Shown here: positions 17,235-64,000 of the stretch, piece by piece
Position numbering within the stretch: position 1 is the stretch's first letter
Layout of the letters: every line of letters starts with the position of its first letter
Assembly: GCA_965153355.1 (NCBI GenBank)
Contig: OZ231126.1
Coordinates: 24,986,001-25,050,000 of the forward strand
DNA: 64,000 nucleotides
DNA from: Flaccisagitta enflata
Taxonomy: Eukaryota
Reading direction: 5' to 3'
Program-made: the position numbers and the translations under genes
Notes under the pieces: model-generated
Told to the model about the DNA's origin: nothing
The model's input: only the letters and a program-made list of their open reading frames with translations
Database searches by the model: none

Positions 17235-18515
17235 ATGCAAGAGTTTTTACGCAATAGTAAAAATGTAAAACCCAAAATCTAGCCAGTTCCGCTGCCTATT
17301 CAGAGGCCAGATAGTAAATTAGCATTTCTGGTAATCATCGGGCACTAACGGATTATCTGACAAAGCCTGCATACATAATATATTCTACAGTATGATTTTT
17401 TTCAAATGACACAAAAGATGACGACATAAATCCTAAACGAATCAAAATAATCAAATTCTGAAAAAAACGCCTGAAAGAGTAGGTTATTGCATTTATTCAT
17501 GCCAAATTTCAGCATTCCGACTCAAGTAGTTTAGCCTCAATCGCTTTTTGAAGTCAAACTATGAATCATCCGATCTTTCAAATGAGACCTTGCTGGATAT
17601 CCTAGCTCTATCCGTTTAGAAATGGCATTAGATTGAAGACTAGGTAGTCAAAAATGCGGAATTTCACAACGTGATTTTCATGGGTTATCTTTATTCTAAC
17701 TTAAAAATCAAATGCATTAAGTCAGAAATTTGTTCTTGGTCCCATTTTAAAGAAAATTTGAAGCTCTTTAATTTGATCATGGATAACAAGTAGCTAAGAC
17801 AATCCTGAGCTGCATCATTGAAAAAAACGAAAAGACAAAAATTACTCATTGGAAAAAAATTGAAATGTTCATTTTTTTCAATCAGTGATTTTTGGGCAGC
17901 GGCCCCGAAGGGGCCGATGACCTATGCTTTCACACAGGGGAATTTTCTCCTTCTCCTTCTCCTTCTCCAGTGTACCCCCCCCCCCTCCCCAACCTCAAGC
18001 CTCAGAGGCCAAACTCTAGCCCAGAAGTCCATTTTACAGTCACCCGCCCCCAAATCCTAGCCTCAAAGCCCAAATTCCTACCCCAAATCTCAAATTCAAG
18101 GCTCAAGGCCCAAATCTCAGTCGAAAGCTTCAAATCACAACTTTTAGATCCAAATTTAAGCACCAAGGCGCCAAGCATAGGTCATTGGGTCCTTCGGGGC
18201 CTGCTGGCCTTCTCCTTCTCAAGCTTACCCCACCTCCCAGTCTCAAGCCTAAGAGCCAAAATTCTAGCCCGGAGGTCCATTTTCCAGTCACCCTCCCTCA
18301 TAGGGCCTCTGGACCCAAATCCTAGCCTCAAAGCCCAAATTCCTACCCACTAGGGCATCCAACGACCGCTTGCTTTAAACTAGGAGTACTTGAACTTTTA
18401 TTGTGGTTTCTGTTGGTCAAGCCCATGTGGGATCCATGGCAATTGATTGCAAAATTTTTCCAGGACAAATTTTTTTTAGATTTCAATTTTTTTGTGGGTG
18501 GGTGGTACAGGCCAT

Positions 18516-19240
18516 TTTCAGCCTTTACCATCAGAACAAGTTAACTTTTAAAGCATTTATCTCCTAAACGAATGAACAAATTGACCTCAACTTGGGCTCA
18601 TTTTTAAGAGGAGACACAGCTCTTTAAAATGAGTCCAAATTGAGCTTAATTGCTCAATTTGTTTAGGAGCAACAGTCCTCCAAAGTCGATGTTATTTTCA
18701 GCCTTTTCCATCAGAACAAGTTAACTTCTAAAGTATTTATCTCCTAAACAAATCAACAAATTGACCTCAACTTGGGCTCATTCTAAAGAGCAGACACAGC
18801 TCTTTAAAATGAGCCCAAATTGAGCTTAATTTCTCAATTTGTTTAGGAGCAACAGTCCTCCAAAGTCGATGCTATTTTCAGCCTTTTCCCTCAGAACAAG
18901 TTAACTTTTAAAGCATCTATCTCCTAAACGAATCAATGAATTGACCTCAACTTAGGCTCATTTTAAAGAGGAGACACAGCTCTTTAAAATGAGCCCAAAT
19001 TGAGCTTAATTGCTCAATTTGTTAGGGAGCAACAGTCCTCCAAAGTCGATGTTTTTTCAGCCTTTTCCATCAGAACAAGTTAACTTCTAAAGCTTGTATT
19101 TCCTTGCCTAATTGACGAATTGACCTCAATTTGGGCTCATTTTACAGAGCAGTCACAGCTCTTTAAAATGAGCCCAAATTGAACTTAATTGCTCCATTCG
19201 TTAAAGAGGAACAGCCCTCCAAAGTTGATGTTACTTTTAG
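18516..19240. repeat. About 4 x 180-bp tandem repeats forming the left Chapaev TIR
   Basis: ttttcagccttt.ccatcagaacaagttaac recurs at about 18516, 18696, 18876 and 19055. Confidence 0.9.
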
Positions 19241-19415
19241 CTGGGTTAGCCGTATATCCGACATTCTTTTTCATAAATTCTGTTTCACACATGATTTTCG
19301 TGATATTTGTTTGAATTGAGGACATATTTGTATCTTTTTTGTTTACTTTCTACTTTTTTTCTTTTCTGCAATAACAAAAAAAAACATACAATAAAACAAA
19401 CAATCACACACACAA

Positions 19416-22783: not shown

Positions 22784-23043
22784 TTAAGCAGAGTGCTAAT
22801 TTATTGTTTTTTGTTGTGGACACGCTACTCTATAAAAGGCTTTGTCCGTTGGTCTGTCAGTCCGTAACGTACGAGGCAAAAGTTGCAGAAGCGCACATTT
22901 GTTATGTGTGTTTGTAGCCAAGGGTTAGTTAGGGGGGAGTTGGAGTGAGACTGGTGGAAGGATGCCCCTACCCACCGGTCCACAACAATATTGTGACCCC
23001 TCGTCACTTGGTTCAGGTAAATTTGGCTTCAATGTTAGCTTGC

Positions 23044-23427
23044 CTCAGCCTCTTTGGTCTCATCAGTCTGCTTCCGTGGGAGATCAGCTTGCTGTGACGC
23101 CTCAAGCTTTTCTTCGGTGAAACGAGCTCTCTTGCATATCAAACATGAGCATGGGGTTGATCGCGATGGAGGGCGGAATCCAGCAAAATCGAGAGAGTTC
23201 CAGCGCTCGCGAACGGTTTTGGGGACAATCGCACCCTTCGAAGCAAAAAGCCACTTTCGGCATTGCCCGCAAACGCCATTGGGGAAGTAAGTATCGACGG
23301 TGCTGTACGCTTTGGTGACTTATGTCTGAATGATACTTTCGATGGCCGGGGTGATTTTGACACACTTTGTGTCCTTTTTGCCGCAGGCAGCGCAGACAAT
23401 TTGACAATTCTCGTCATGACTGCGCAT
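23044..23427 (-). pseudogene. Chapaev transposase exon 1 (N-terminal Cys/His zinc-finger region), in-frame stop at 23320-23322
   Basis: MRSHDENCQIVCAACGKK...T*VTKAYSTVDTYFPNGVCGQCRKWLF...RWNSLDF...PCSCLICKRAR, giving H-x7-CxxC / P-x3-CxxC / CxCxxC spacing. Confidence 0.8.
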
Positions 23428-23825
23428 TTGGTTAGTGTTGTTTAGTTCAATAAAAAGAATGAAGAAAAAAATGAAAGTGGCAAAATGTTTACCACAAATC
23501 ATGAACACAGGATGACACCAATGCTACTACTCACTTCCAGTCCAAGTTTCATCATTCATCAATCATCATTCATCATCCTCTATAGACAGTCCGTGACTAA
23601 AAATGCTGTGTCTATTTGTTCTTCCATGCTTCAAACCCATTCAGGTCGCTTAACAAATATACTTCTTAGAATTTTTCAAAGACACTGTGAATAATCGTTG
23701 ATATCTTGCATAAACCACAAGAAAACTTATTTGACAGATAAAGCGGTAGAATTCAAATCATTCCCATTTTCAAAAGCTGTTAATGCCTACAGTTGAAAAC
23801 TTTCTGCCATTTTTCTGCAATTGTC

Positions 23826-24722
23826 ATTAACTTTCGAGGACTGTTGCTCCTAAACGGATTGAGCAAATAAGCTCAATTTGGGTTCAATTCAAAGAACTGT
23901 GTCTGCTCTTTAAAATGAGCCCAAGTTGAGGTCAATTCGTCAATTCGTTTAGGAGTTATATGCCTAAGCAGTGACCATGTTCTGATTGAAAAGGCTGAAA
24001 ATAACATCAACTTTGGAGGACTGTTGCTCCTAAACGACTTGAGCAATTAAGCTCAATTTGGGCTCATTTTAAAGAACTGTGTCTCCTCTTTAAAATGAGC
24101 CCAAGTTGAGGTCAATTCGTCAATTTGTTTAGGAGATATATGCCTAAGCAGTGACCATGTTCTGATTGAAAAGGCTGAATATAATATCGACTTTGGAGGA
24201 CTGTTGCTCCTAAACGAATTGAGCAATTTAGCTCAATTTGGGCTCATTTTAAAGAGCTGTGTCTCCTCTTTAAAATGAGCCGAAGTTGAGGTCAATTTGT
24301 TGATTCGTTTAGGAGATAAATGCTTTAGAAGTTAACTTGTTCTGATGGAAAAGGCTGAAAACGATATCGACTTTGGAGGACTGTTGCTCCTAAACAAATT
24401 GAGCAATTAAGCTCAATTTGGGCTCATTTTAAAGAGCTGTGTCTCCTCTTTAAAATGAGCCCAAGTTGAGGTCAATTTGTTGATTTGTTTAGGAGATAAA
24501 TACTTTAGAAGTTAACTTGTTCTGATGGTAAAGGCTGAAAACAATATCGAATTTGGAGGACTGTTGCTCCTAAACAAATTGAGCAATTAAGCTCAATTTG
24601 GGCTCATTTTAAAGAGCTGTGTCTGCTCTTTAAAATGAGCCCAAGTTGAGGTCAATTCGTTGATTCGTTTAGGAGATAAATGCTTTAAAAGTTAACTTGT
24701 TCTGATGGTAAAGGCTGAAAGT
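23826..24722. repeat. About 5 x 180-bp tandem repeats forming the right Chapaev TIR (inverted relative to the left array)
   Basis: ggaggactgttgctcctaaac recurs every ~180 bp and is the reverse complement of the left array. Confidence 0.9.
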
Positions 24723-25636
24723 GGCCTGTACTACCCACCCACAAAAAAAATGAAATTTAAAAAAATTTCGTCCTGGAAAAATTTTGCAATCAATTGCCAT
24801 GGATCCCACATGGGCTTGACCAACAGAAACCACAATAAAAGTTCAAGTACTCCTAGTTTAAAGCAAGCGGTCGTTGGATGCCCTAGTGTACCCCAAATCT
24901 CAAATTCAAGGCTTTTTTGGGGCCTGCTGGCCTCCTTCCTTCTCAAGTTTACCCCCCTCCCAGCCTCAAGCCTCGGAGCCCAAATTCTTGCCCAGAGGCT
25001 CATTTTCCAGTCACCCTCCCTCATATAAATACAAAATCATTAAAAACAGCATAGGTCATCGGCCCCTTTGGGGCCGCTGCCCCTCTTACAACCACACACT
25101 AAAATACACTAACACAGGGGCATCGGGTACCGCTGACCATCTAACGCTTTTGCGACTATTTTACTTCAAACCTTTGCCATTTCTAAACGAATTAAGCTAC
25201 AATTACCAGCAACGTCGCCTTTGGAAGAATTTTTGCTGAGCTTTCAAACAATCATGGATTTTCTATGGTTCAGGTCCTTGGTTAAGCCAAAATTAGCAAA
25301 ACAAGGTGTTTGCCTTTTTTCTTTGCCATAAGAGTAAAAAGAAATTGATATCTTCACTTTAAATGTAAATTGAAGTTAAACTACTTGAGACGGAATGCTG
25401 AAATTTGGCATGAATAAATGCAATAACCTACGCTTTCAGGCGTTTTTTTCAGAATTTGATTATGTTGATTTCGTTTAGGATTTATGTCGTCATCTTTTGT
25501 GTCATTTGAAAAAAATCATACTGTATCTTCATACATTTGATCATTGAATGGTAATTTTTCGTGTCTTTGTTTGTATAATCACATAAAGGTTAACTTCCCT
25601 CCATAGAAAATCATTTGCGTTTTGTCAGTCTGTTAT

Positions 25637-25730: not shown

Positions 25731-28066
<2,336 letters not shown>

Positions 28067-28110
28067 AAAAAAAAAAAAGAACCATAGGCCGACGTACACT
28101 TTTTTCTTTC

Positions 28111-33119: not shown

Positions 33120-35724
33120 TCAGGTTTTTTTTATCCTTTTCCATTTTACCACTTGTTTATGTTTTTTCGGGCATTTCTATCCACATTGTGTCATCAAAAA
33201 TCATTTTATGACCTAGTCAGCTTTTTTCAGTAAAGTTCAATCATTTTACATTATTTTTTTTATTTCTATCATTAATTTTCTTTCATTTTAAACTTTTTTT
33301 TTTGCATTTTCTTGCTGATCTTTTCATGGTCATTTTAAGTCTTTCTTAGTCATTTTGATGAAGTTCAAGTCTCTCATTTTAAGTCTTTTTCAAATTTGTC
33401 TAAGTTATTTCAAATTATTCTAACTCTTTTTTTCACTCTCTTTTATCTGGTATACTCTCCCTGAATCATCTTTTATTTACTGATTTACTAAATTCTTTTT
33501 TGTTTTTTGTTGAATTCAAAAAGGGTTGAATGTATAGTGGAAAACCCAATGCACAAGACTATTGTACTCTCCATTTTAGAAAAACCTTTGCGGTTGACTG
33601 TTTTGGATTCCCTTGGAACAACCCGTGCATGGCTGTCAGCATCAATATTCTTTCTTAATAAGTAAATTACATCAAGAAAAGTTCACACCTAAATTTTTTA
33701 GATGTGGAGATCTCATTTAGGTAAAGATTTTTATAAGAAATATAAAAAAATGCTGATTTTTTTACTTTTTTGCGTTTACCATATCATTTCGGACAGTCAT
33801 ATCTCAGCGACATTTGGGAAATAAGGGATGAAATTTTTTCTGGAATCTCTACAAATGTAGCAAATATCATTGATTAGAAAATATTTGGGTTACATGACCT
33901 TAAAATAGTATTTCCATGAGAAAAAACTAAAAAACGCGATTTTCGAAGGGCGATTTTTAGTTTTTTGAGTCATTTTAGCCTATGAAGCTGTTCATCAAAG
34001 GCCACAAAAATTTGCATGAAGGTAGTTGCATAACATAGGAAGTTCCATTTCAAATTTTGTGAGAATCCAAGCATTTTTGGGAGCGTAATGAATAAAAAAC
34101 TTATATTTTCTTGATTTACGGGCCCCTTTTGGGCCTTTTTGGGGACCCCAAGCTACACCCACCATCATAATTCTTTCTGTTTTAGTCTCTTACATTAAGA
34201 TGAGTTCCCACTTACAAGTTTTGGGTGCTGGGCTCTGATAGATATAGATTTTTTTACCAAAAATACCCAAAAATGGCCATTTTTAGCAGTTTTTTTGGGT
34301 GCGTTTCTAAAAGCCCCCTCATAGGGCCCTGAAACCCCAAAAAATGAATTCCTGATGAAATTTTGTATGGGATTCACTTTTTTTTGGACACCTTAAACGA
34401 TTTTTTTTTTTTCGACTAGAAATAATGCAGCTAGCTCCAATCTTGCATGTAACGGTTTAGACCGGCCTTTTTCGAAATCATGTCCTCAGCCCCCTTAAAA
34501 ATGTTTTTCATCCGAGTAGCACAATCTAGCCCTCAAAATCTTCCGACATGAAAATCTGCCATATTTAACAAAGATTTACCCAACAACTTTGCCCAACAAT
34601 TTGAAAAGTATGTATGTAATAGGACAGGGGTTCTGACACAGATTTTGGCAGATCCTTCTTGTTAACGGCACTTTGGCTCAAAATCAATGTAGTATTAATG
34701 TTCTGCCTTCAAAAGTCGCATTGGGTATCAGGAAATTGTGACCGCCACCCCCCACCCCCCCTCAGAAGGTGGTGACCTCTAAAGATTAAGCAATTCGCCT
34801 TCTTTTGCTAATAAATTCTAAATGGATCATTCAAAAAGCCTGGTGATGGTCTCATTTGAAAGGTATTTACGTGGAGAACATGAAAGATTACTGATATGAA
34901 AGAGGGGTCCCAAGGGGGGGCCCTTAAGGGGCCCCTAAAGTGATTGAAGGGGCCCCCAAAGCATCCAATACATGAAAATGTGCAATGATTTGTTAAAAAA
35001 AACTAGGTAATGGTGTCATTTAAAACGTTTCTACCCATAGAATATGAAAATTACTGATGTGGAAGAGGGGGCGCCAAAGGGGCCCCTAAAGAACCCCAAA
35101 GAGGTTAAAGGGGCCCTAGAAGGATCTATAACCATGAAAATGTAGATTGGACTCTTTGATAAATCTGATTGTGGTGTTTTTGGAAGGTATCTACATGGAG
35201 AACATGAAATGTTATTGACATGGATGATGGGGTCCCTAGGTGGCCGCTTAGGGCCCCCAAAGGGGGCCCTAAGCAGGATCTAAAGCCTTGAAAATTTAAA
35301 ATGAATTGTTCAAAAAATCTGATAGTGGTCTCATTTGGGAGGTATTTACATAAAAAACATAAAACATTACTGATATGGAAAATTCGGTTCCCAGGGGGCC
35401 CCTAAGGAGCCGCTAAGGAGTAAAAGAGGACCCCAATGAATCCAAAATCATTAAAATCTTGAATTGTCATAGTCTTCTCTAAAAGACAGACCAAAATAAA
35501 CAAACAGATAGGTATACAGACAGAGGGACGGACAAAAAGACAGACAGACAAATGGGCGGATAAACCAAGGGAGTGCAGAGTGTGGAGTTCAGTTGAGTTT
35601 AGCTGGGCAATCAGTTATGGATGTCAACTCCTATGTGTCAAGATTAAGGAAAAATCTTGACACAAATGTCTGTCTGTCTTTTTGTGTGTCTGTCTTTTTG
35701 TGTGTCTGTCTATCTGAATACCTA

Positions 35725-46739: not shown

Positions 46740-47090
46740 CGAGGGAGAAATAAGGAACATTTGAGAGAAACGTATGGAAAAGGGTAAGGGGTAGGAAGGA
46801 AGGACGAAGGGGGGGGGGGGGGGGAAATAACGAACATAGGCGAGAAACGTACAGAAAAAGGTAAGGGATAGGAAGGAAGGACGAAGGTGGCGGGGGGGGG
46901 GGGGAAATAACGAACATAGGCGAGAAACGTAGAGGAAAAGGTAAAAGTTAGGAGGGAAGGACAAAGGGGGGGGAAATAACGAACATAGGCGAGAAACGTA
47001 GAGGAAAAGGTAAGGGTTAGGAGGGAAGGACGAAGGGGGGGGGGGGAGAACTAAGGAACATATGGAACATATATGAGAAACGTACGCAGT
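46740..47090. repeat. ~60-68-bp minisatellite with G-runs
   Basis: gggaaataacgaacataggcgagaaacgta recurs three times, plus diverged units. Confidence 0.85.
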
Positions 47091-47723
47091 AGGACAGGGG
47101 TTCTGACACAAATTTTGGCAGATCCTTCTTGTTAACGGCACTTTGGCTCAAAATCAATGTAGTATTAATGTTCTGCCTTCAAAAGTCGCATTGGGTATCA
47201 GGAAATTGTGACCGCCACCCCCCCACCCCCCTCAGAAGGTAGTGACCTCTAAAGATTAAGCAATTTGCCTTCTTTTGCTAATAAATTCTAAATGGATCAT
47301 TCAAAAAGCCTGGTGATGGTCTCATTTGAAAGGTATTTACGTGAAGAACATGAGAGATTACTGATATGAAAGAGGGGTCCCAAGGGGGGCCCTTAAGGGG
47401 CCCCTAAAGTGATTGAAGGGCCCCCAAAGCATCCAATTTTTAAACAAATCATAGCACATTTTCATGTATTGGATGCTCTGGGGGCCCCTTCAATCAGTAA
47501 TCTTTCATGTTCTTCACGTGAATACCTTTCAAATGAGACCATCACCAGGCTTTTTGAATGATCCATTTAGAATTTATTAGCAAAAGAAGGCGAATTGCTT
47601 AATCTTTAGAGGTCACCACCTTCTAAGGGGGGGTGGGGGGGTGGCGGTCACAATTTCCTGATACCCAATGCAACTTTTGAAGGCAGAATATTAATACTAC
47701 ATTGATTTTGAGCCAAAGTGCCG
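47090..47723. mobile_element. Internally deleted, right-truncated copy of the 34620-37119 hAT element
   Basis: Left arm TAGGACAGGGGTTCTGACAC.. nearly identical to 34620-34968, joined to the inverted arm, which ends at CCAAAGTGCCG. Confidence 0.9.
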
Positions 47724-48143
47724 GGAAGGACGAAGGGGGGGGGGGAGAACTAAGGAACATATGGAACATATATGAGAAACGTACGCAGTTGCAGGGTTTA
47801 GAGTGATAGGCGATGGAGAGAGGGAGAAATTGGGAACATGTGAGAGGAACTACGCATAATGTAATATGGTGGGCAGGAGGGAGGGAAAGAAGGGAATGCA
47901 GCGGAATAAATAGAGAAGAGTAAGAGGAAACATTGAAACGATGCAACTGATAAAAAGTTGTGGAGGTCACATTTGAGACTCTTTGAAAGAAAATAAATGC
48001 GGCCTACTATGAATTGGAAAACAGAAAAACAGATATGATGTAGGAAACGATAAAAGATTAGTGTAGGTCCGTGCCTGATTGTCCATGGGTCTGCTGGAGC
48101 TGATCCCCAAGTCGATATAATATGGGTCTGCTAGGGTTCTGCT

Positions 48144-48428
48144 CAGGGGCGTATGGGAGCCAAAGTTTTAGGGGTAGCCACCCCCAGTTTGTGTCCCAAC
48201 AAATTTTATGACCTGATGAAAATTTTGCCTAATTTTTATGTGTCTTTTAAAAAAAATATTAATTGATATATATTTGAATTAAAACAATGAAAAAACCATT
48301 GCCCTTTCTTTCTTTTTCTCTCTCTTTTTCTCTCTCTTTCTTTTTTTCTCTTTCTCTTTTTCTTTATATTTTGTGTCCCAACAGGGGTAGCCATGGCTAC
48401 CCCGACGACCCCTTCTAATACGCCCCTG
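48144..48428. mobile_element. hAT MITE
   Basis: CAGGGGCGTAT ... ATACGCCCCTG with 8-bp TSD GTTCTGCT. Confidence 0.92.
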
Positions 48429-48548
48429 GTTCTGCTGGCCATGATCCCCATAAGCTAGCGATTTCCATAGCAGATGGGTCTTCCAGGCTGTGGGTCTGCC
48501 AAAACACAAAAACCTAGAAACGAAGAGGGAAACACGACTAGGATAGCC

Positions 48549-49252
48549 TTTTTGGGCAGCGGCCCCAAAGGGCCGATGTCCTGTAGGACACAGGGGTGAA
48601 TTTCCTTACGTCTGTCTGTCCGTCTGTCCGTCCATCCATCCGTCCGTCCGTCCGTCCGTCCGTCCGTCCGTCCGTCCGTCCGTCCATCCGTCCGTCCGTC
48701 CGTCCGTCCGTCCGTCCGTCCGTCCTTCCTTCAGTCTGTCTGTCCATCCGTCTGTCCGTCTGTCCTTCCGTCCATACGTACGTCCCTCCCCAAGTTTCTC
48801 AATTCTCAAATTACCATTGAATAACATGGGAAAATGACAAAATGCAAACATCCCATTGAATAACATGGAAAATTGACAAAAAAATAGAAAAATATAAATT
48901 TCGTATCGAATAACATGGAAATTGACAAAAAAAAAAAAAATAAAAGCAAGATTCCTATTGAATAACATGGAATATTGATAAGAAAAATTAAAAAAAAGAT
49001 GAAATTCTCATTGAATAAGATGGATTATGGATAAAAGATGTAAAACTCCCATTGAATTTCATGGAAAATTGTCCAAAAGGCCTGAAATTTGCCTTCTCAG
49101 GAATCTCAGGACGTAAGGAAATTCACCCCTGTGTCCTACAGGACATCGGTCCTTTGGGGCCGATGCCCTGCTCTCACTCAACTTCTTCAGCTGATCATTC
49201 CAAGCAGGGCATCGGGTACCGCTGACCATGTGCGATCCTTGGATGACTTGTT
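48549..49252 (+). mobile_element. Family B HINE-like element with different central repeats (CCATTGAATAACATGGAAAAT-like)
   Basis: Head and inverted copy (48554-48612 vs about 49110-49168), (GTCC)n, tail GATCCTTGGATGACTTGTT. Confidence 0.85.
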
Positions 49253-50679
49253 ACTTAATAGTTGCATACATTGAACAGGATCAATGACGCGAAAACTCAG
49301 AAAGGCGGAGTAAAGGATGAAAGGATGGTAAGAGACAAACCCAATGCTTGTCACACATTAGATGCCTCGCTGCTTTAGAAAGAAGCAAAAATGTGAAGAA
49401 ATGATGCGTGGATGAATGGCAGGAACGGAGGGGAGGGAGAAAGGGGGATAGGAAAAATGTTGTAACAAGAAAAGGACAAAATGATATGAATTTCAAGTAA
49501 GTTGAGTAGAAAGAACAAGAAAAGTAGGCAGAATTAAAAAAAAAGGAGCCCGCGTGGTTTGAAGGAGGCAAGGGAAGAGAAGAAGAAAGCAGCGTTGCCT
49601 GAATTCGCCGCATCGCCGCTTGAGGGAGCAACAAAGCGGCCATTTTTCAATCGGAATCTCCCTTCTGTCGGCCACGTAATAAAAACAAGTGAGCAACAGG
49701 CGAGAAGAGAATAATTCAAAACTTTTTTTCCCTTTTTTGTCGGCGCATTGGGATGGCTGTGATGTAAATGCGAACTATTCTAGTTACTACTAAAAAAGCG
49801 AGGGCTAGAGTAAGTTCACGGTAAGTTTTTCTCACTTGAAATATATCAGCCTAACGGTTATGTGTTAATTTTACCTTAAAACGAGTCCAACAGAGCAGTG
49901 TCACCGTTTTTCCCCTACAAACTGACTAGTAGGGCCGCAAATGTCAAAAGAAACCAATTTGGACAGTCCGGCCGACCAAGAAGCGTCTATGATTGATAAC
50001 GCACCCTAGCGTTACGTTGCGTTAGCGCCTTAAACCAGACTTAAGAGCAAATGCAGCATGGTCATGCGTAACTTCCCAATTCATTAATCACTTTTCATTC
50101 TCCTCCTCCTTCTAGCCTCCTCCTCTAGATACACCATGAATGTTTACTGCTGCTCTTTTCCCCCTTTCCTCCTCAAGTTGAGGGCCTCAAAATACCCATT
50201 TCCTCATCGATACCTCTTCGTTCTCCTTTTACAAAGCGCTTCCTTCTATTCTCATTCTACTTTCTAAAGCTCTACTTCCTTTTTCCTAATTTCATTCTTA
50301 GATAAGGAAAGATGATGTCAATGGAGGCATTTGCCATCGAAAGGGAGAGGAAGAGGAAGAAGAGAAGGAGGAAGAGGAGGGTTTGATAGATCGTTAAGGC
50401 ATGTTCCCTGTATTCTCTATTCTTGGGTGAACAACTAGGACACGATGAGAACACCATGAGAGCACCATGAGAGCACCGTGAGAGCACCAAAGGATCTAAA
50501 GGCGATCGCTAGAAAAGCATTAGTCATGTGAAGCCGTCAAGAAAGAGAGAGAGAGAGAGAAAGAGGAAGGAAAAGGAAAGGGAAAAGGAAAAGGGAGGAA
50601 AAAGGAAAGAAACGAAACGGTTTTGATTAAAGGCAACAACACGAGACAAACGGTTTCTTATTTTTGAGGAAGAAGTGGT

Positions 50680-51055
50680 GGAGGGAGGATGAGGAAGGTT
50701 GAGAGAAGATGAGGGAGGATGAGGGAGGATGAGGGTGGTTGAGGGAGGATGAGGGAGGATGAGGAAGGATAAGGGAGGATGAGGGAGGATGAGGGTGGTT
50801 GAGTGAGGATGAGGGAGAATGAGGGAGGATGAGGGAGGATGAGGGAGGATGAGGGTGGTTGAGAGAGGATGAGGGAGAATGAGGGAGGATGAGGGAGGAT
50901 GAGGGAGGATGAGGGAGGTTGAGGGAGGATGAGGAAGGTTGATGGAGGATGAGGAAGGTTGAGAGAGGATGAGGGAGGATGAGGGTGGTTGAGAGAGGAT
51001 GGGGGAGGATGAGGGGGGGGGGGGTGAAAGAGGATGAGGGAGGTTGAGAGAGGAT
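50680..51055. repeat. (GAGGGAGGAT)n 10-bp minisatellite
   Basis: Direct reading. Confidence 0.92.
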
Positions 51056-51452
51056 AAGGTTGGTTGAGAGTTCGAGGGCGGATGAAAAAGCGGTAGAAAT
51101 GGAACAGAAGCGAGATGGTAACAGTGGGAGGCAGGGAAATTGAGAAAATGGCCCAAATTGTGATCTGAGTTCGGTGGATTAGGAAAAATGGAGAGACAAA
51201 TGGTTGCGAGAGTTGAAAAATAAGGGTAAAAAGAACTGATTATGATTTTGGTTCCACGGATTAAGGGGATATGGAGAGGGACAAACATTTTGGAGGTTGC
51301 GAGGGTGTAAACGTAGAATAGGAGAGAACAATTCTCGGAAAGATTGCGAAAACGAGTCATCGCAAAGGTTTGGGTCAAAAACAAAATGGAAAAATGGAAA
51401 AAAGTGACATTAGATGCTATAAAGACATCTCGAACAATGCAAAGATAATCAA

Positions 51453-51675
51453 AGGCGAAGTTTCTGATTATGGGTAGTCAGTGTTGAATAAAAAACAATA
51501 TGTTTTTCTTTCCGAATTTTCGAACTGATTGCACACAAGCACAGAACATCATCAGGGAATACATGTTTTTACATATTTCCCGATGATGTTCTGTGCAATC
51601 ATTTCGGAAATTCCGAAAGATAAACATATTGTTTTTTCATTCAACACTGACTACCTGTAGTCATAAATTTCTCCT
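51453..51675. mobile_element. Palindromic Kolobok-like MITE
   Basis: Whole-element hairpin GGTAGTCAGTGTTGAAT..AACAATATGTTT / AAACATATTGTT..ATTCAACACTGACTACC. Flanks TCAA|AGG..CCT|TTAA. Confidence 0.75.
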
Positions 51676-52888
51676 TTAAAGGAATTACATTCATTTACGG
51701 AAGAGACAAACTTGATGATAGACAGTTCACATTTTATTGAAATTTGTAATCTTAAGTGTAATAAGTCATCATTTACTTTTCTTCAGCCTGATGACTGATT
51801 GAATGCTGAACCGATTAAGGAGATCTTAGTATGGCATTGTCCATGGATGGCGTGTGAATTGATCTGAGTTGAGTAGGAAAATCCACGAGGAAGAATGAGA
51901 GAGGTTTGTCATTTATATTTGAATTGTTTTTTTAAAACAGCCGATGATGGAAAAGACTTCAACGAGTGCAAAATTGTCACGTGGTTCAGCAGTTAACGTT
52001 GGATGGTTCAGCCATCAGGGTGAATGTTAGCATTATTAGGAGGTAGAATGAATTCTTGGAGTTTATGAGAAGTGGTGGTGTAAAATTGAACGACAGTATT
52101 TGTGAAAAAGGTTGTGGACCTGAGTACTACTCAGTGAGTAGTCAATGAAGCATCAAAATATGTAATTGGCATTTGACTGATAGAAAATTGCGTTGGACAA
52201 TCATATAAAATGTAAAATTTTGAAGGCATTGCAATTGATTGCTCCCTGTGAGCATCGCTGCTGTTGTGTTGCTTCGTCTGAAAGGATTTTACCCATTCTC
52301 TATTATCGGTGGTTCGAAGTGAGCACGAAGTACACTTTTTATCTTTTATAAGAACGTCATTTTTTTGGCTGCGTTGGCCGCGTTGCACGTTGGCATAAAT
52401 CTTAATCGATGATCTTCAACTTGGTCTTAAAAGAAAGCTTGACGACTAACCTTTTCTTTGATGGTCTAACTTAAGAGCTCCAAAATCATCATGAACAAAC
52501 GTTGAGAAAAGCGTCTGAACAGACCGACCGACCTTCCGATCGACCAACCGACAAAGCGGTTTATAGATTCAGTTGCACACGACTAAAAAGTGTATTGTCG
52601 CGGACAGAGGGCAGGGGCGTCCACCCAAGAAGTTGGTGTACGCCACTAAAAATAAGGCCAAAAAAGGCATTTTGTTGCGCCCAAAAAGAGGAACTCCCGG
52701 ACCGACCGATTAATGTAATGGAAATAGGATATTTAGAGACTGGTCTTTTGTCTGAAATTTGAATATTAGGCAATAGAGCGAGCAGCTTATTTTACCTTTG
52801 ATTCTTAACGTTATGTGAGACAAAACCACATCGTCAATTTTCTCAACAAGTCACGCGGACAGAGGGCAGGGACGTTCACCACCCCCCT

Positions 52889-62534: not shown

Positions 62535-62998
62535 TTACCCGTACATTTTGACGTCCACAAACGATACACACCCACAACCAACACCACAACCTCCTCGTCT
62601 TTGTACCGTCTTGATTCCGTAGCACTGGTAGGATCCTTGACGATCGCAGGGAATGTTGATGGTCTTGGTTTGTGCAGGGGCACTGAATCCAAGATCATCC
62701 CAATATCCGAGGTAGTTCCATGCTATGCAATCATCAGACGCAACAACCGTGATCGATTTGGGTGATTGCTCCCCCCAGAGCGAACTTTGTCTAGACGTGA
62801 TGGATATCCTCGAGACAACCTTTTTGTCGTTGAATCTGTACCAAACCGTTGCCGGGACCTGGTTTTGAGCGCTCGCGTATGGTAAGTTGTTGGTTTGCGG
62901 TTTGAAAGCGTTTGCGGCACCATGACTTGAATGCCAAATGCTATCAGCATCAGAATGTCCTTCATATTCAATGAGGCTTGGATTCGTGTCGCATGAAG
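62535..62998 (-). CDS. Terminal exon encoding a discoidin/F5-8C-like domain (paralogous to lectin exon 5); upstream exons not identified, probably beyond the window end
   Basis: Acceptor ctgtctctctcatgttttgaccag, phase 1, 153 open codons: SCDTNPSLIEYEGHSDADSIWHSSHGAANAFKPQTNNLPYASAQNQVPATVWYRFNDKKVVSRISITSRQSSLWGEQSPKSITVVASDDCIAWNYLGYWDDLGFSAPAQTKTINIPCDRQGSYQCYGIKTVQRRGGCGVGCGCVSFVDVKMYG*. AATAAA on the minus strand at 62479-62484. Confidence 0.85.
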
Positions 62999-63393
62999 CT
63001 GGTCAAAACATGAGAGAGACAGGGTAAGAGTGCTATCATCTTGGTTATCTGCGCGATTTTAGTGCTCACCATATTTCATGTAGGAGGTATATTAGTCGAA
63101 TAGTCGTATGAAATGTTGAAATTCGAGGTTATAGAAATTCAGACTAAAATTGTCTGTGAGTCACAATGCAAATGAAGATGAAATTTGATGTTCAGTCCTT
63201 ATGAACAATTTCAGACAATCATTTTTATCAATATCAAAACCTGTATTTTGTTTTTCACGCTTCTGATTATTTTAGATGTATTTCAAAAAGATTAACCGAC
63301 AGAAATTACTAATTGTTTATGGTTAAAGACAAACATTACTCAACAAAACATGAATATTTCTCACCAAAAAGATAACAAAATTTCAAACAGCTG

Positions 63394-63983: not shown

Positions 63984-64000
63984 GAATTAGGCTTAACCTA

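Follow-up and report, generated by a model that had tools for sequence, protein, structure and literature searches.

A three-exon gene ending in a discoidin/CBM32-fold exon, and the expanded exon family to which it belongs, in the genome of Flaccisagitta enflata

The gene at the end of the window

The stretch of DNA analysed here, referred to as the window, comprises 64,000 nucleotides of the Flaccisagitta enflata genome (G000:C1:24986001-25050000, where C1 is contig OZ231126.1). It holds a lectin gene on the plus strand and, close to its end, the terminal exon of a minus-strand gene with three exons, the first two of which lie 0.4-0.8 kb past the window end (Table 1). Exon 3, the subject of this study, carries a frame at 62996-62538 that lacks a leading ATG and runs for 153 stop-free codons to a TAA at 62537-62535; two nucleotides precede its Ser codon, which places the exon in phase 1. 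The first-pass annotation had described exactly such an ATG-less frame with a strong acceptor, a stop and a downstream AATAAA, and had read it as a phase-1 terminal exon; all of these elements are present in the sequence. The frame is not a chance one, because dN/dS measured against four paralogues is 0.20-0.29, four open-frame copies that are 95-98% identical to exon 3 occur in public assemblies, and RNA contigs lie on the gene. Exon 3 is under purifying selection and terminates a genuine gene.

Table 1. Features of the two genes, in window coordinates; numbering is continued past the window end.
Feature	Position	Strand	Remarks
Lectin gene, exons 1-4	25731..27365	+	signal peptide, charged helical exon, two-exon C-type lectin domain
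Lectin gene, exon 5	27585..28066	+	phase 1, terminal; subfamily B domain; no match in a Pfam search
Polyadenylation signal AATAAA	62479..62484	-	50 nt past the stop; 3' region spanned by X1 RNA contig record 1
Exon 3	62535..62998	-	phase 1, terminal; discoidin/CBM32-fold domain; 153 aa, split codon and stop
Intron 2 acceptor AG (63000-62999) and pyrimidine tract	62999..63030	-	CAG, seen in the sequence
Intron 2	62999-64430	-	1432 nt, GT-AG, phase 1; window ends at 64000
Exon 2	64431-64604	-	174 nt, phase 1-1; encodes a coiled coil with about 7 heptads
Intron 1	64605-64721	-	117 nt, GT-AG, phase 1
Exon 1, coding part	64722-64800	-	79 nt; ATG and signal peptide (hydrophobic; judged by eye)
TATA-like box	64967-64975	-	judged by eye

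When joined, the three exons form a single open frame of 238 amino acids that comprises a signal peptide, a coiled coil and the discoidin/CBM32-fold domain. The product would be secreted, given the signal peptide predicted by inspection. Upstream exons for a signal peptide or a C-type lectin domain (CTLD) had been anticipated beyond position 64000; the signal peptide exon was found there, whereas the partner of the domain turned out to be a coiled coil rather than a CTLD. A weak match resembling exon 1, at 33580, does not represent a gene.

Four RNA runs were compared, of which three were informative, these being low-depth marine metatranscriptomes from one study. A 284-nt contig with six differences (X1 record 7) skips exactly intron 1, and its alignment breaks off precisely at the donor of exon 2, leaving 28 letters unaligned. 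Further X1 and X3 contigs match, at 96-99%, portions of exon 3 as well as the 3' end, and one X3 contig runs two letters past the exon 3 acceptor, both of which fit either side; the raw reads of X4 match an intron repeat only and give no evidence on this gene. Of the splicing that had been proposed for checking at position 62998, the RNA shows that exon 3 is covered and intron 1 is spliced, but the exon 2-exon 3 joint is not among the RNA contig alignments listed from the three metatranscriptomes. The frame, the gene structure and the splicing of intron 1 are established, and splicing at 62998 is presumed; in a paralogue, the public protein P0019 (domain 88% identical) reads through the coil-to-domain junction as the genomic phase-1 splice predicts.

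In the exon 2 peptide, 9 of the 15 a and d positions are L, I, M, V or F, and three copies of it model as a parallel coiled-coil trimer with a score of 0.76, against 0.02 for the best of three controls, with at least 91% contact agreement between runs and a pLDDT of at least 87. In the calibration, which used two copies and in which a pass may be due to memorisation by the model, 21 of 30 solved pairs and none of 23 single chains from microbes came up to the mark, as did 7 of 16 from animals. The coil is thus modelled to trimerise, and the protein has the layout of a signal peptide, an oligomerising coiled coil and a terminal globular head, with the trimer as a prediction.

The lectin gene has features of its own. 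Its two Lectin_C matches (E 5.5e-4 and 1.5e-3) each fall under the cut-off. Intron 3 (27079-27214) needs a phase-2 donor, and among the sites at 27075-27110 only the GC after 27079 fits, the GT sites being in other phases, which leaves two possibilities, a GC-AG intron or damage to the gene. At 27640-27700 exon 5 is without the A..AF segment present in 18 other aligned members of its subfamily, and a run of A follows directly after its stop (28064-28082). Elsewhere in the window, Cys-rich frames on the minus strand at 23035-23445 resemble, by eye, a zinc-finger piece from a mobile element, and two arrays of 180-nt tandem repeats, about 90% alike, lie in opposite orientation at 23825-24888 and 18348-19241.

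Fold and sequence affinity of the domain

The discoidin-like fold originally proposed for exon 3 is borne out by structure modelling. The model has a pLDDT of 94. In a fold search its best matches, at Z 17.0-17.5 and rmsd 2.1-2.8 Å over 129-139 residues, were CBM32 modules from sialidase, GH92 and galactose oxidase, led by sialidase (Z 17.5, rmsd 2.8 Å over 139 residues) and followed by GH92 and the NanJ CBM32 (both Z 17.4); Foldseek agrees, with 259 matches at E<=0.001. Discoidin folds outside CBM32 come about 1-2 lower, at Z 15-16.6 for DDR2, neuropilin, factor V/VIII, muskelin and APC10, with neuropilin and muskelin at 16.6.

The affinity is fainter in sequence. Pfam PF00754 (F5/8 type C) matches exon 3 with 19.2 bits (E 0.0014), under the gathering cut-off of 28.2 bits. 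At E<=0.1 the same model finds 15 of 20 members of the exon 3 type and 4 of 19 of the lectin exon 5 type, the best at 2.8e-11, and since several members match it the family connects transitively to PF00754. Against solved chains, exon 3 as a single sequence gave nothing real (best E 0.86, with no CBM32 at E<=10), whereas a 43-member family profile ranked the two modules of GH92 7nsn first (5e-14), a chitosan-binding CBM32 second (3e-5) and muskelin third (1e-4), with factor VIII at E 0.026-0.049 and neither neuropilin nor DDR among the 25 sequences at E<=10.

The bacterial F5/8 type C or CBM32 chains 7nsn, 2v72, 1eut and 4zxe, respectively a GH92 mannosidase, the NanJ CBM32, a sialidase and a chitosan-binding module, thus combine the same fold with the best sequence matches among solved chains. 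They have in common the ordered motifs A.S...A..AF...W.S...P..W..F...P..F...GSND..W..L and are 14-19% identical to exon 3, compared with 9-12% for the metazoan discoidin/FA58C domains of factor V/VIII (C), neuropilin (b), DDR, CASPR2 and lactadherin, which share the fold and are likewise extracellular and shuffled with EGF, VWA and other modules. Judged by sequence, the domain appears closer to bacterial modules than to the canonical metazoan discoidins. However, CBM32 modules are appendages of glycosidases, whereas the exon 3 head would be a free secreted domain on a coiled coil, encoded by a spliced animal gene. An Arg conserved in at least 90% of the family (Arg69) is kept in exon 3, but Ala stands at the W-H-S histidine and Lys at the A-F-D aspartate of the related modules, the His being kept in subfamily B. 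We assume that this His and Asp act in sugar and calcium binding, CBM32 modules presumably holding sugar in a His/Arg/aromatic site and calcium in a separate structural site. The animal clade also has an added Cys pair (C90 and C125 of exon 3) that is at least 90% conserved in alignment A1. The head is part of a separate animal clade of discoidin/CBM32-like domains that is faint in Pfam and of known fold and design.

F-type lectins (fucolectins) have the same fold (Z 15.0-15.4), and the passages of PMC5712786 that concern them describe secreted proteins, single, tandem or mosaic, of patchy distribution and suggested lateral transfer, with a fucose motif HX24RXDX4(R/K) and a cation motif h2DGx. 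An F-type identity was ruled out, as neither the former (spacing 23-27 allowed) nor the latter (first 60 residues) occurs in any of 77 genomic domains.

A dispersed family and its phase-1 boundary

The suggestion that exon 3 belongs to an expanded family was supported by a genome-wide scan. The exon 3 query gave 64 matches from 93 candidates. For lectin exon 5, with 150 of 239 candidates scored, there were at least 149, and a third subfamily (query range 350-530) added 28. These 241 matches, none overlapping another, fall on all nine contigs in at least 168 places, a lower bound that results from merging at a 10-kb gap and includes halves and pseudogenes. The PF00754 search of the genome gave 44 matches. 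At C1:34105723-34125846 (L088-L104) at least nine near-identical exons of the third subfamily stand in tandem at a spacing of about 2 kb, as a multi-domain gene or an array. The genome is also rich in C-type lectin exons, with at least 150 matches (the best 150 of 503 candidates scored), and has dozens of kringle exons.

The annotation had paired exon 3 with exon 5 of the lectin gene on the strength of four motif pairs, and these do align with their order kept (BLASTP 23% identity over 124 columns, E 4e-6). The statement that both exons begin with SC is nearly right, the exact starts being (A)SC in exon 3 and (E)ISC in lectin exon 5. A pairwise alignment of the two subfamily profiles with hhalign (99.7%, E 4e-26, 144 columns) and a common fold (lectin exon 5 model pLDDT 77, Z 12.9) confirm the homology. 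It is nevertheless very improbable that exon 3 is an ancient local paralogue of lectin exon 5 within a small local family, even though both are phase-1 terminal exons of convergent genes 34.5 kb apart. In the tree the two fall into separate clades, lectin exon 5 into one of 22 members with support 0.999, and the nearest relatives of exon 3 lie at C1:24.86 Mb, C1:24.87 Mb and on C4 and C5. Only two of the 64 exon 3-type matches are found <=35 kb from a lectin-type match, against about 0.8 expected (0.013 per point), so that nothing about the convergent pair calls for explanation. The 64-kb window yielded no further copy of the domain beyond these two. The truly local relatives are instead those at C1:24855696 (91% identical, with a premature TGA) and C1:24873283 (74%), and the idea of a local family does not survive.

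The first of these (L002) and a copy at C4:10321745 (L003) are full three-exon paralogues, the closest to exon 3 at 91-92% identity, and in both of them the same conserved Trp position carries a premature TGA. They are 97% identical to each other over 3.5 kb with unrelated upstream flanks, and by this comparison appear to be a recent DNA-level duplication between contigs in which the introns were kept. Two such close paralogues indicate that copies die often. In addition, a direct repeat of at least 5 kb occurs at 47059-52241 of the window and again about 22 kb downstream (L031:6160-10000 and L032:1-1210; 91-99.8% identity), so that the exon 3 gene lies between its two copies. Both observations would suit a decaying or stranded duplicate, but the frame is intact, as are all splice sites, the RNA is spliced, dN/dS is below 0.3 and four intact copies exist elsewhere; there is hence very little chance that the gene is anything other than a working one.

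It had also been proposed that the domain is a shuffled single-exon module at the C-terminus. An acceptor was called near the domain start in 40 of 49 distinct fetched places, always in phase 1 (40/40), whereas six shifted control windows gave 4-13 calls out of 48-49 in mixed phases. As the copies at the 49 places share ancestry, this represents one conserved intron position and not 40 events. Shuffling of exon modules between phase-1 introns is a familiar concept, and the partners found here agree with it. Exons for a signal peptide and a coil stand beside the domain on the same strand in the exon 3 gene, L045, L132 and L134; a VWA exon lies just upstream of the domain arrays at all four array loci fetched at 10 kb; kringle exons follow 1.6-3.6 kb downstream at L127; and a CTLD precedes the domain in the lectin gene of the window and, at C7:22.54 Mb and C3:21.85 Mb, lies no more than about 2 kb upstream of it. 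These are co-locations that probably reflect membership in single genes. For most single-domain loci (L035, L037-L040, L046, L128-L131, L133, L135, L136, L139-L142) no partner exon was recognised in 10 kb with stored relatives as the only queries, which is not evidence of absence. Public relatives show fusions of the domain with kringle, EGF, VWA, CBM14, H-lectin, CAP, SRCR, ankyrin and CTLD.

The shuffled, phase-1-bounded module is thus upheld, with all 40 acceptors in one phase and several partner domains, but single-exon and C-terminal do not hold as a rule. Exon 3 and most fetched copies finish in a stop. However, at 7 of 30 fetched lectin-type loci only part of the domain lies in one frame, internal introns splitting it near profile positions 42, 52, 63, 79, 88-100 and 121; the arrays L041-L044 (C6:30.93 Mb, C5:46.58 Mb, C5:8.40 Mb and C7:2.60 Mb) hold 3-6 tandem domains per open frame, some after a Pro/Lys/Thr-rich linker; and a phase-1 donor motif follows directly after the domain at L006, L007, L010 and L025. 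As the internal introns sit at many different positions, the simplest reading would be that the ancestor was intronless and gained introns later. A phase-1 opening intron would let the head join any phase-1 exon, be it coil, C-type lectin or VWA, and a phase-1 donor after the head would let it precede others such as the kringle.

Relatives, origin and probable function

Protein searches by word index lacked sensitivity (7, 19 and 3 matches); at E<=0.001 a full HMM search recovered 3702 proteins. Among the best 150 of these, 113 are animal-type and 37 are mostly giant multi-domain proteins that stand apart in the tree; one is named Paenibacillus, and "bacterial-type" for the other 36 refers to architecture and tree position. 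Per-domain scores are at least 59 bits for the 110 animal-type proteins scored and at most 68 for the 37 giant-type ones. The tree covers 260 of 364 domains (up to two per protein or locus), is midpoint-rooted without an outgroup and leaves out a few short animal-type fragments. The relatives are unnamed marine proteins and proteins of krill; when 30 relatives were looked up by name, three had an organism attached, two being krill and one Paenibacillus. Krill is the only animal named among the relatives, with four proteins; those of Meganyctiphanes norvegica (CAL4114092.1 and CAL4130272.1) are unnamed members of the same animal-type group, with best per-domain scores of 59-77 bits against the exon 3-type profile, the former having CTLD partners, and another krill protein carries kringles beside the domain. 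Of the animal-type relatives of at least 225 aa, 30 of 42 have a hydrophobic N-terminus by a crude hydropathy rule. The family had been called possibly undescribed, and no description was found in searches of an open-access library, although subscription papers or supplements may list the expansion.

The origin of the domain is a question independent of its function. It is fairly probable that the domain descends by vertical inheritance from a muskelin-, BTBD9- or protist-type discoidin of eukaryotes without any transfer, its bacterial look arising from bacterial modules being numerous and conserved. Muskelin ranks third by sequence, the animal group forms its own clade and is not nested in the giant multi-domain proteins (in a tree rooted as above), the occurrence in krill suggests an old origin, and a feature search with a full-length relative puts echinoderm and parabasalid clusters on top (0.87), a weak lead. 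On the other hand, within the best 150, the relatives outside the animal type that come nearest are those giant proteins, including the Paenibacillus one, the canonical discoidin exons of the genome are unmatched by the family profile at E 1e-4, and the scattered internal introns would suggest an intronless ancestor. The data are compatible with a bacterial origin, although a tree lacking an outgroup cannot show transfer. More speculatively, and on balance unlikely, a bacterial CBM32-type module may have entered an early animal lineage intronless, been fixed downstream of a phase-1 intron, acquired a disulfide and turned into a major shuffled recognition module, giving rise to an unrecognised lectin repertoire of hundreds in marine plankton animals that would be secreted, common to krill and largely invisible to Pfam.

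As to function, we consider it likely, with a probability of roughly 0.6, that the functional three-exon gene encodes a secreted trimeric lectin-like recognition protein, for which glycan binding and a part in defence are putative roles. Three heads held by the coil would gain avidity for repetitive sugars, and such soluble, multivalent recognition of microbial, prey or self surfaces would resemble that of collectin-like, C1qDC and fibrinogen-related lectins. The discoidin fold also binds collagen, lipids and peptides, and the same gene and family could instead have a head that binds protein or lipid, or that is a structural or adhesive part of cuticle, mucus or extracellular matrix, after the manner of the DDR, neuropilin and lactadherin discoidins and not of a lectin. 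We regard this, the chief alternative, as possible but doubtful. Non-glycan discoidins are nearly equal in the fold search, the candidate sugar and calcium residues differ in exon 3 (Ala and Lys), the animal clade has its added C90-C125 Cys pair, and partners such as VWA, EGF and kringle are characteristic of matrix proteins. However, the closest solved chains by sequence are bacterial carbohydrate modules (GH92 and the chitosan-binding CBM32), ahead of muskelin and factor VIII. The relatives' partners (CTLD, kringle, EGF, CBM14, H-lectin, CAP, SRCR and VWA) are extracellular recognition modules, several of them lectin or chitin-binding, and rapid birth and death together with variable loops would fit a recognition repertoire.

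A lectin-like role also has parallels in design. According to parts of PMC8878817, bivalve C1qDC and single-domain FReD proteins combine a signal peptide, a coiled coil and a carbohydrate-recognition domain (CRD) in hundreds of paralogues. The architecture and oligomerising neck of the bivalve proteins are those of the exon 3 gene, but their heads are C1q or fibrinogen in place of discoidin, and the likeness is one of design, by analogy and without homology. PMC8878817 also mentions a secreted rotifer protein with a discoidin-like CRD unlike F-type lectins.

The single gene is ordinary in design, and it is the family that constitutes the main result. It offers a clean, countable case of exon shuffling, and were a bacterial origin true it would represent a rare transferred domain turned mobile extracellular module. 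As Pfam mostly misses the domain at the 168 or more places, a large secreted repertoire would go without names in annotation. This repertoire may prove to be a lectin family of marine plankton animals and, as a candidate, is open to testing.
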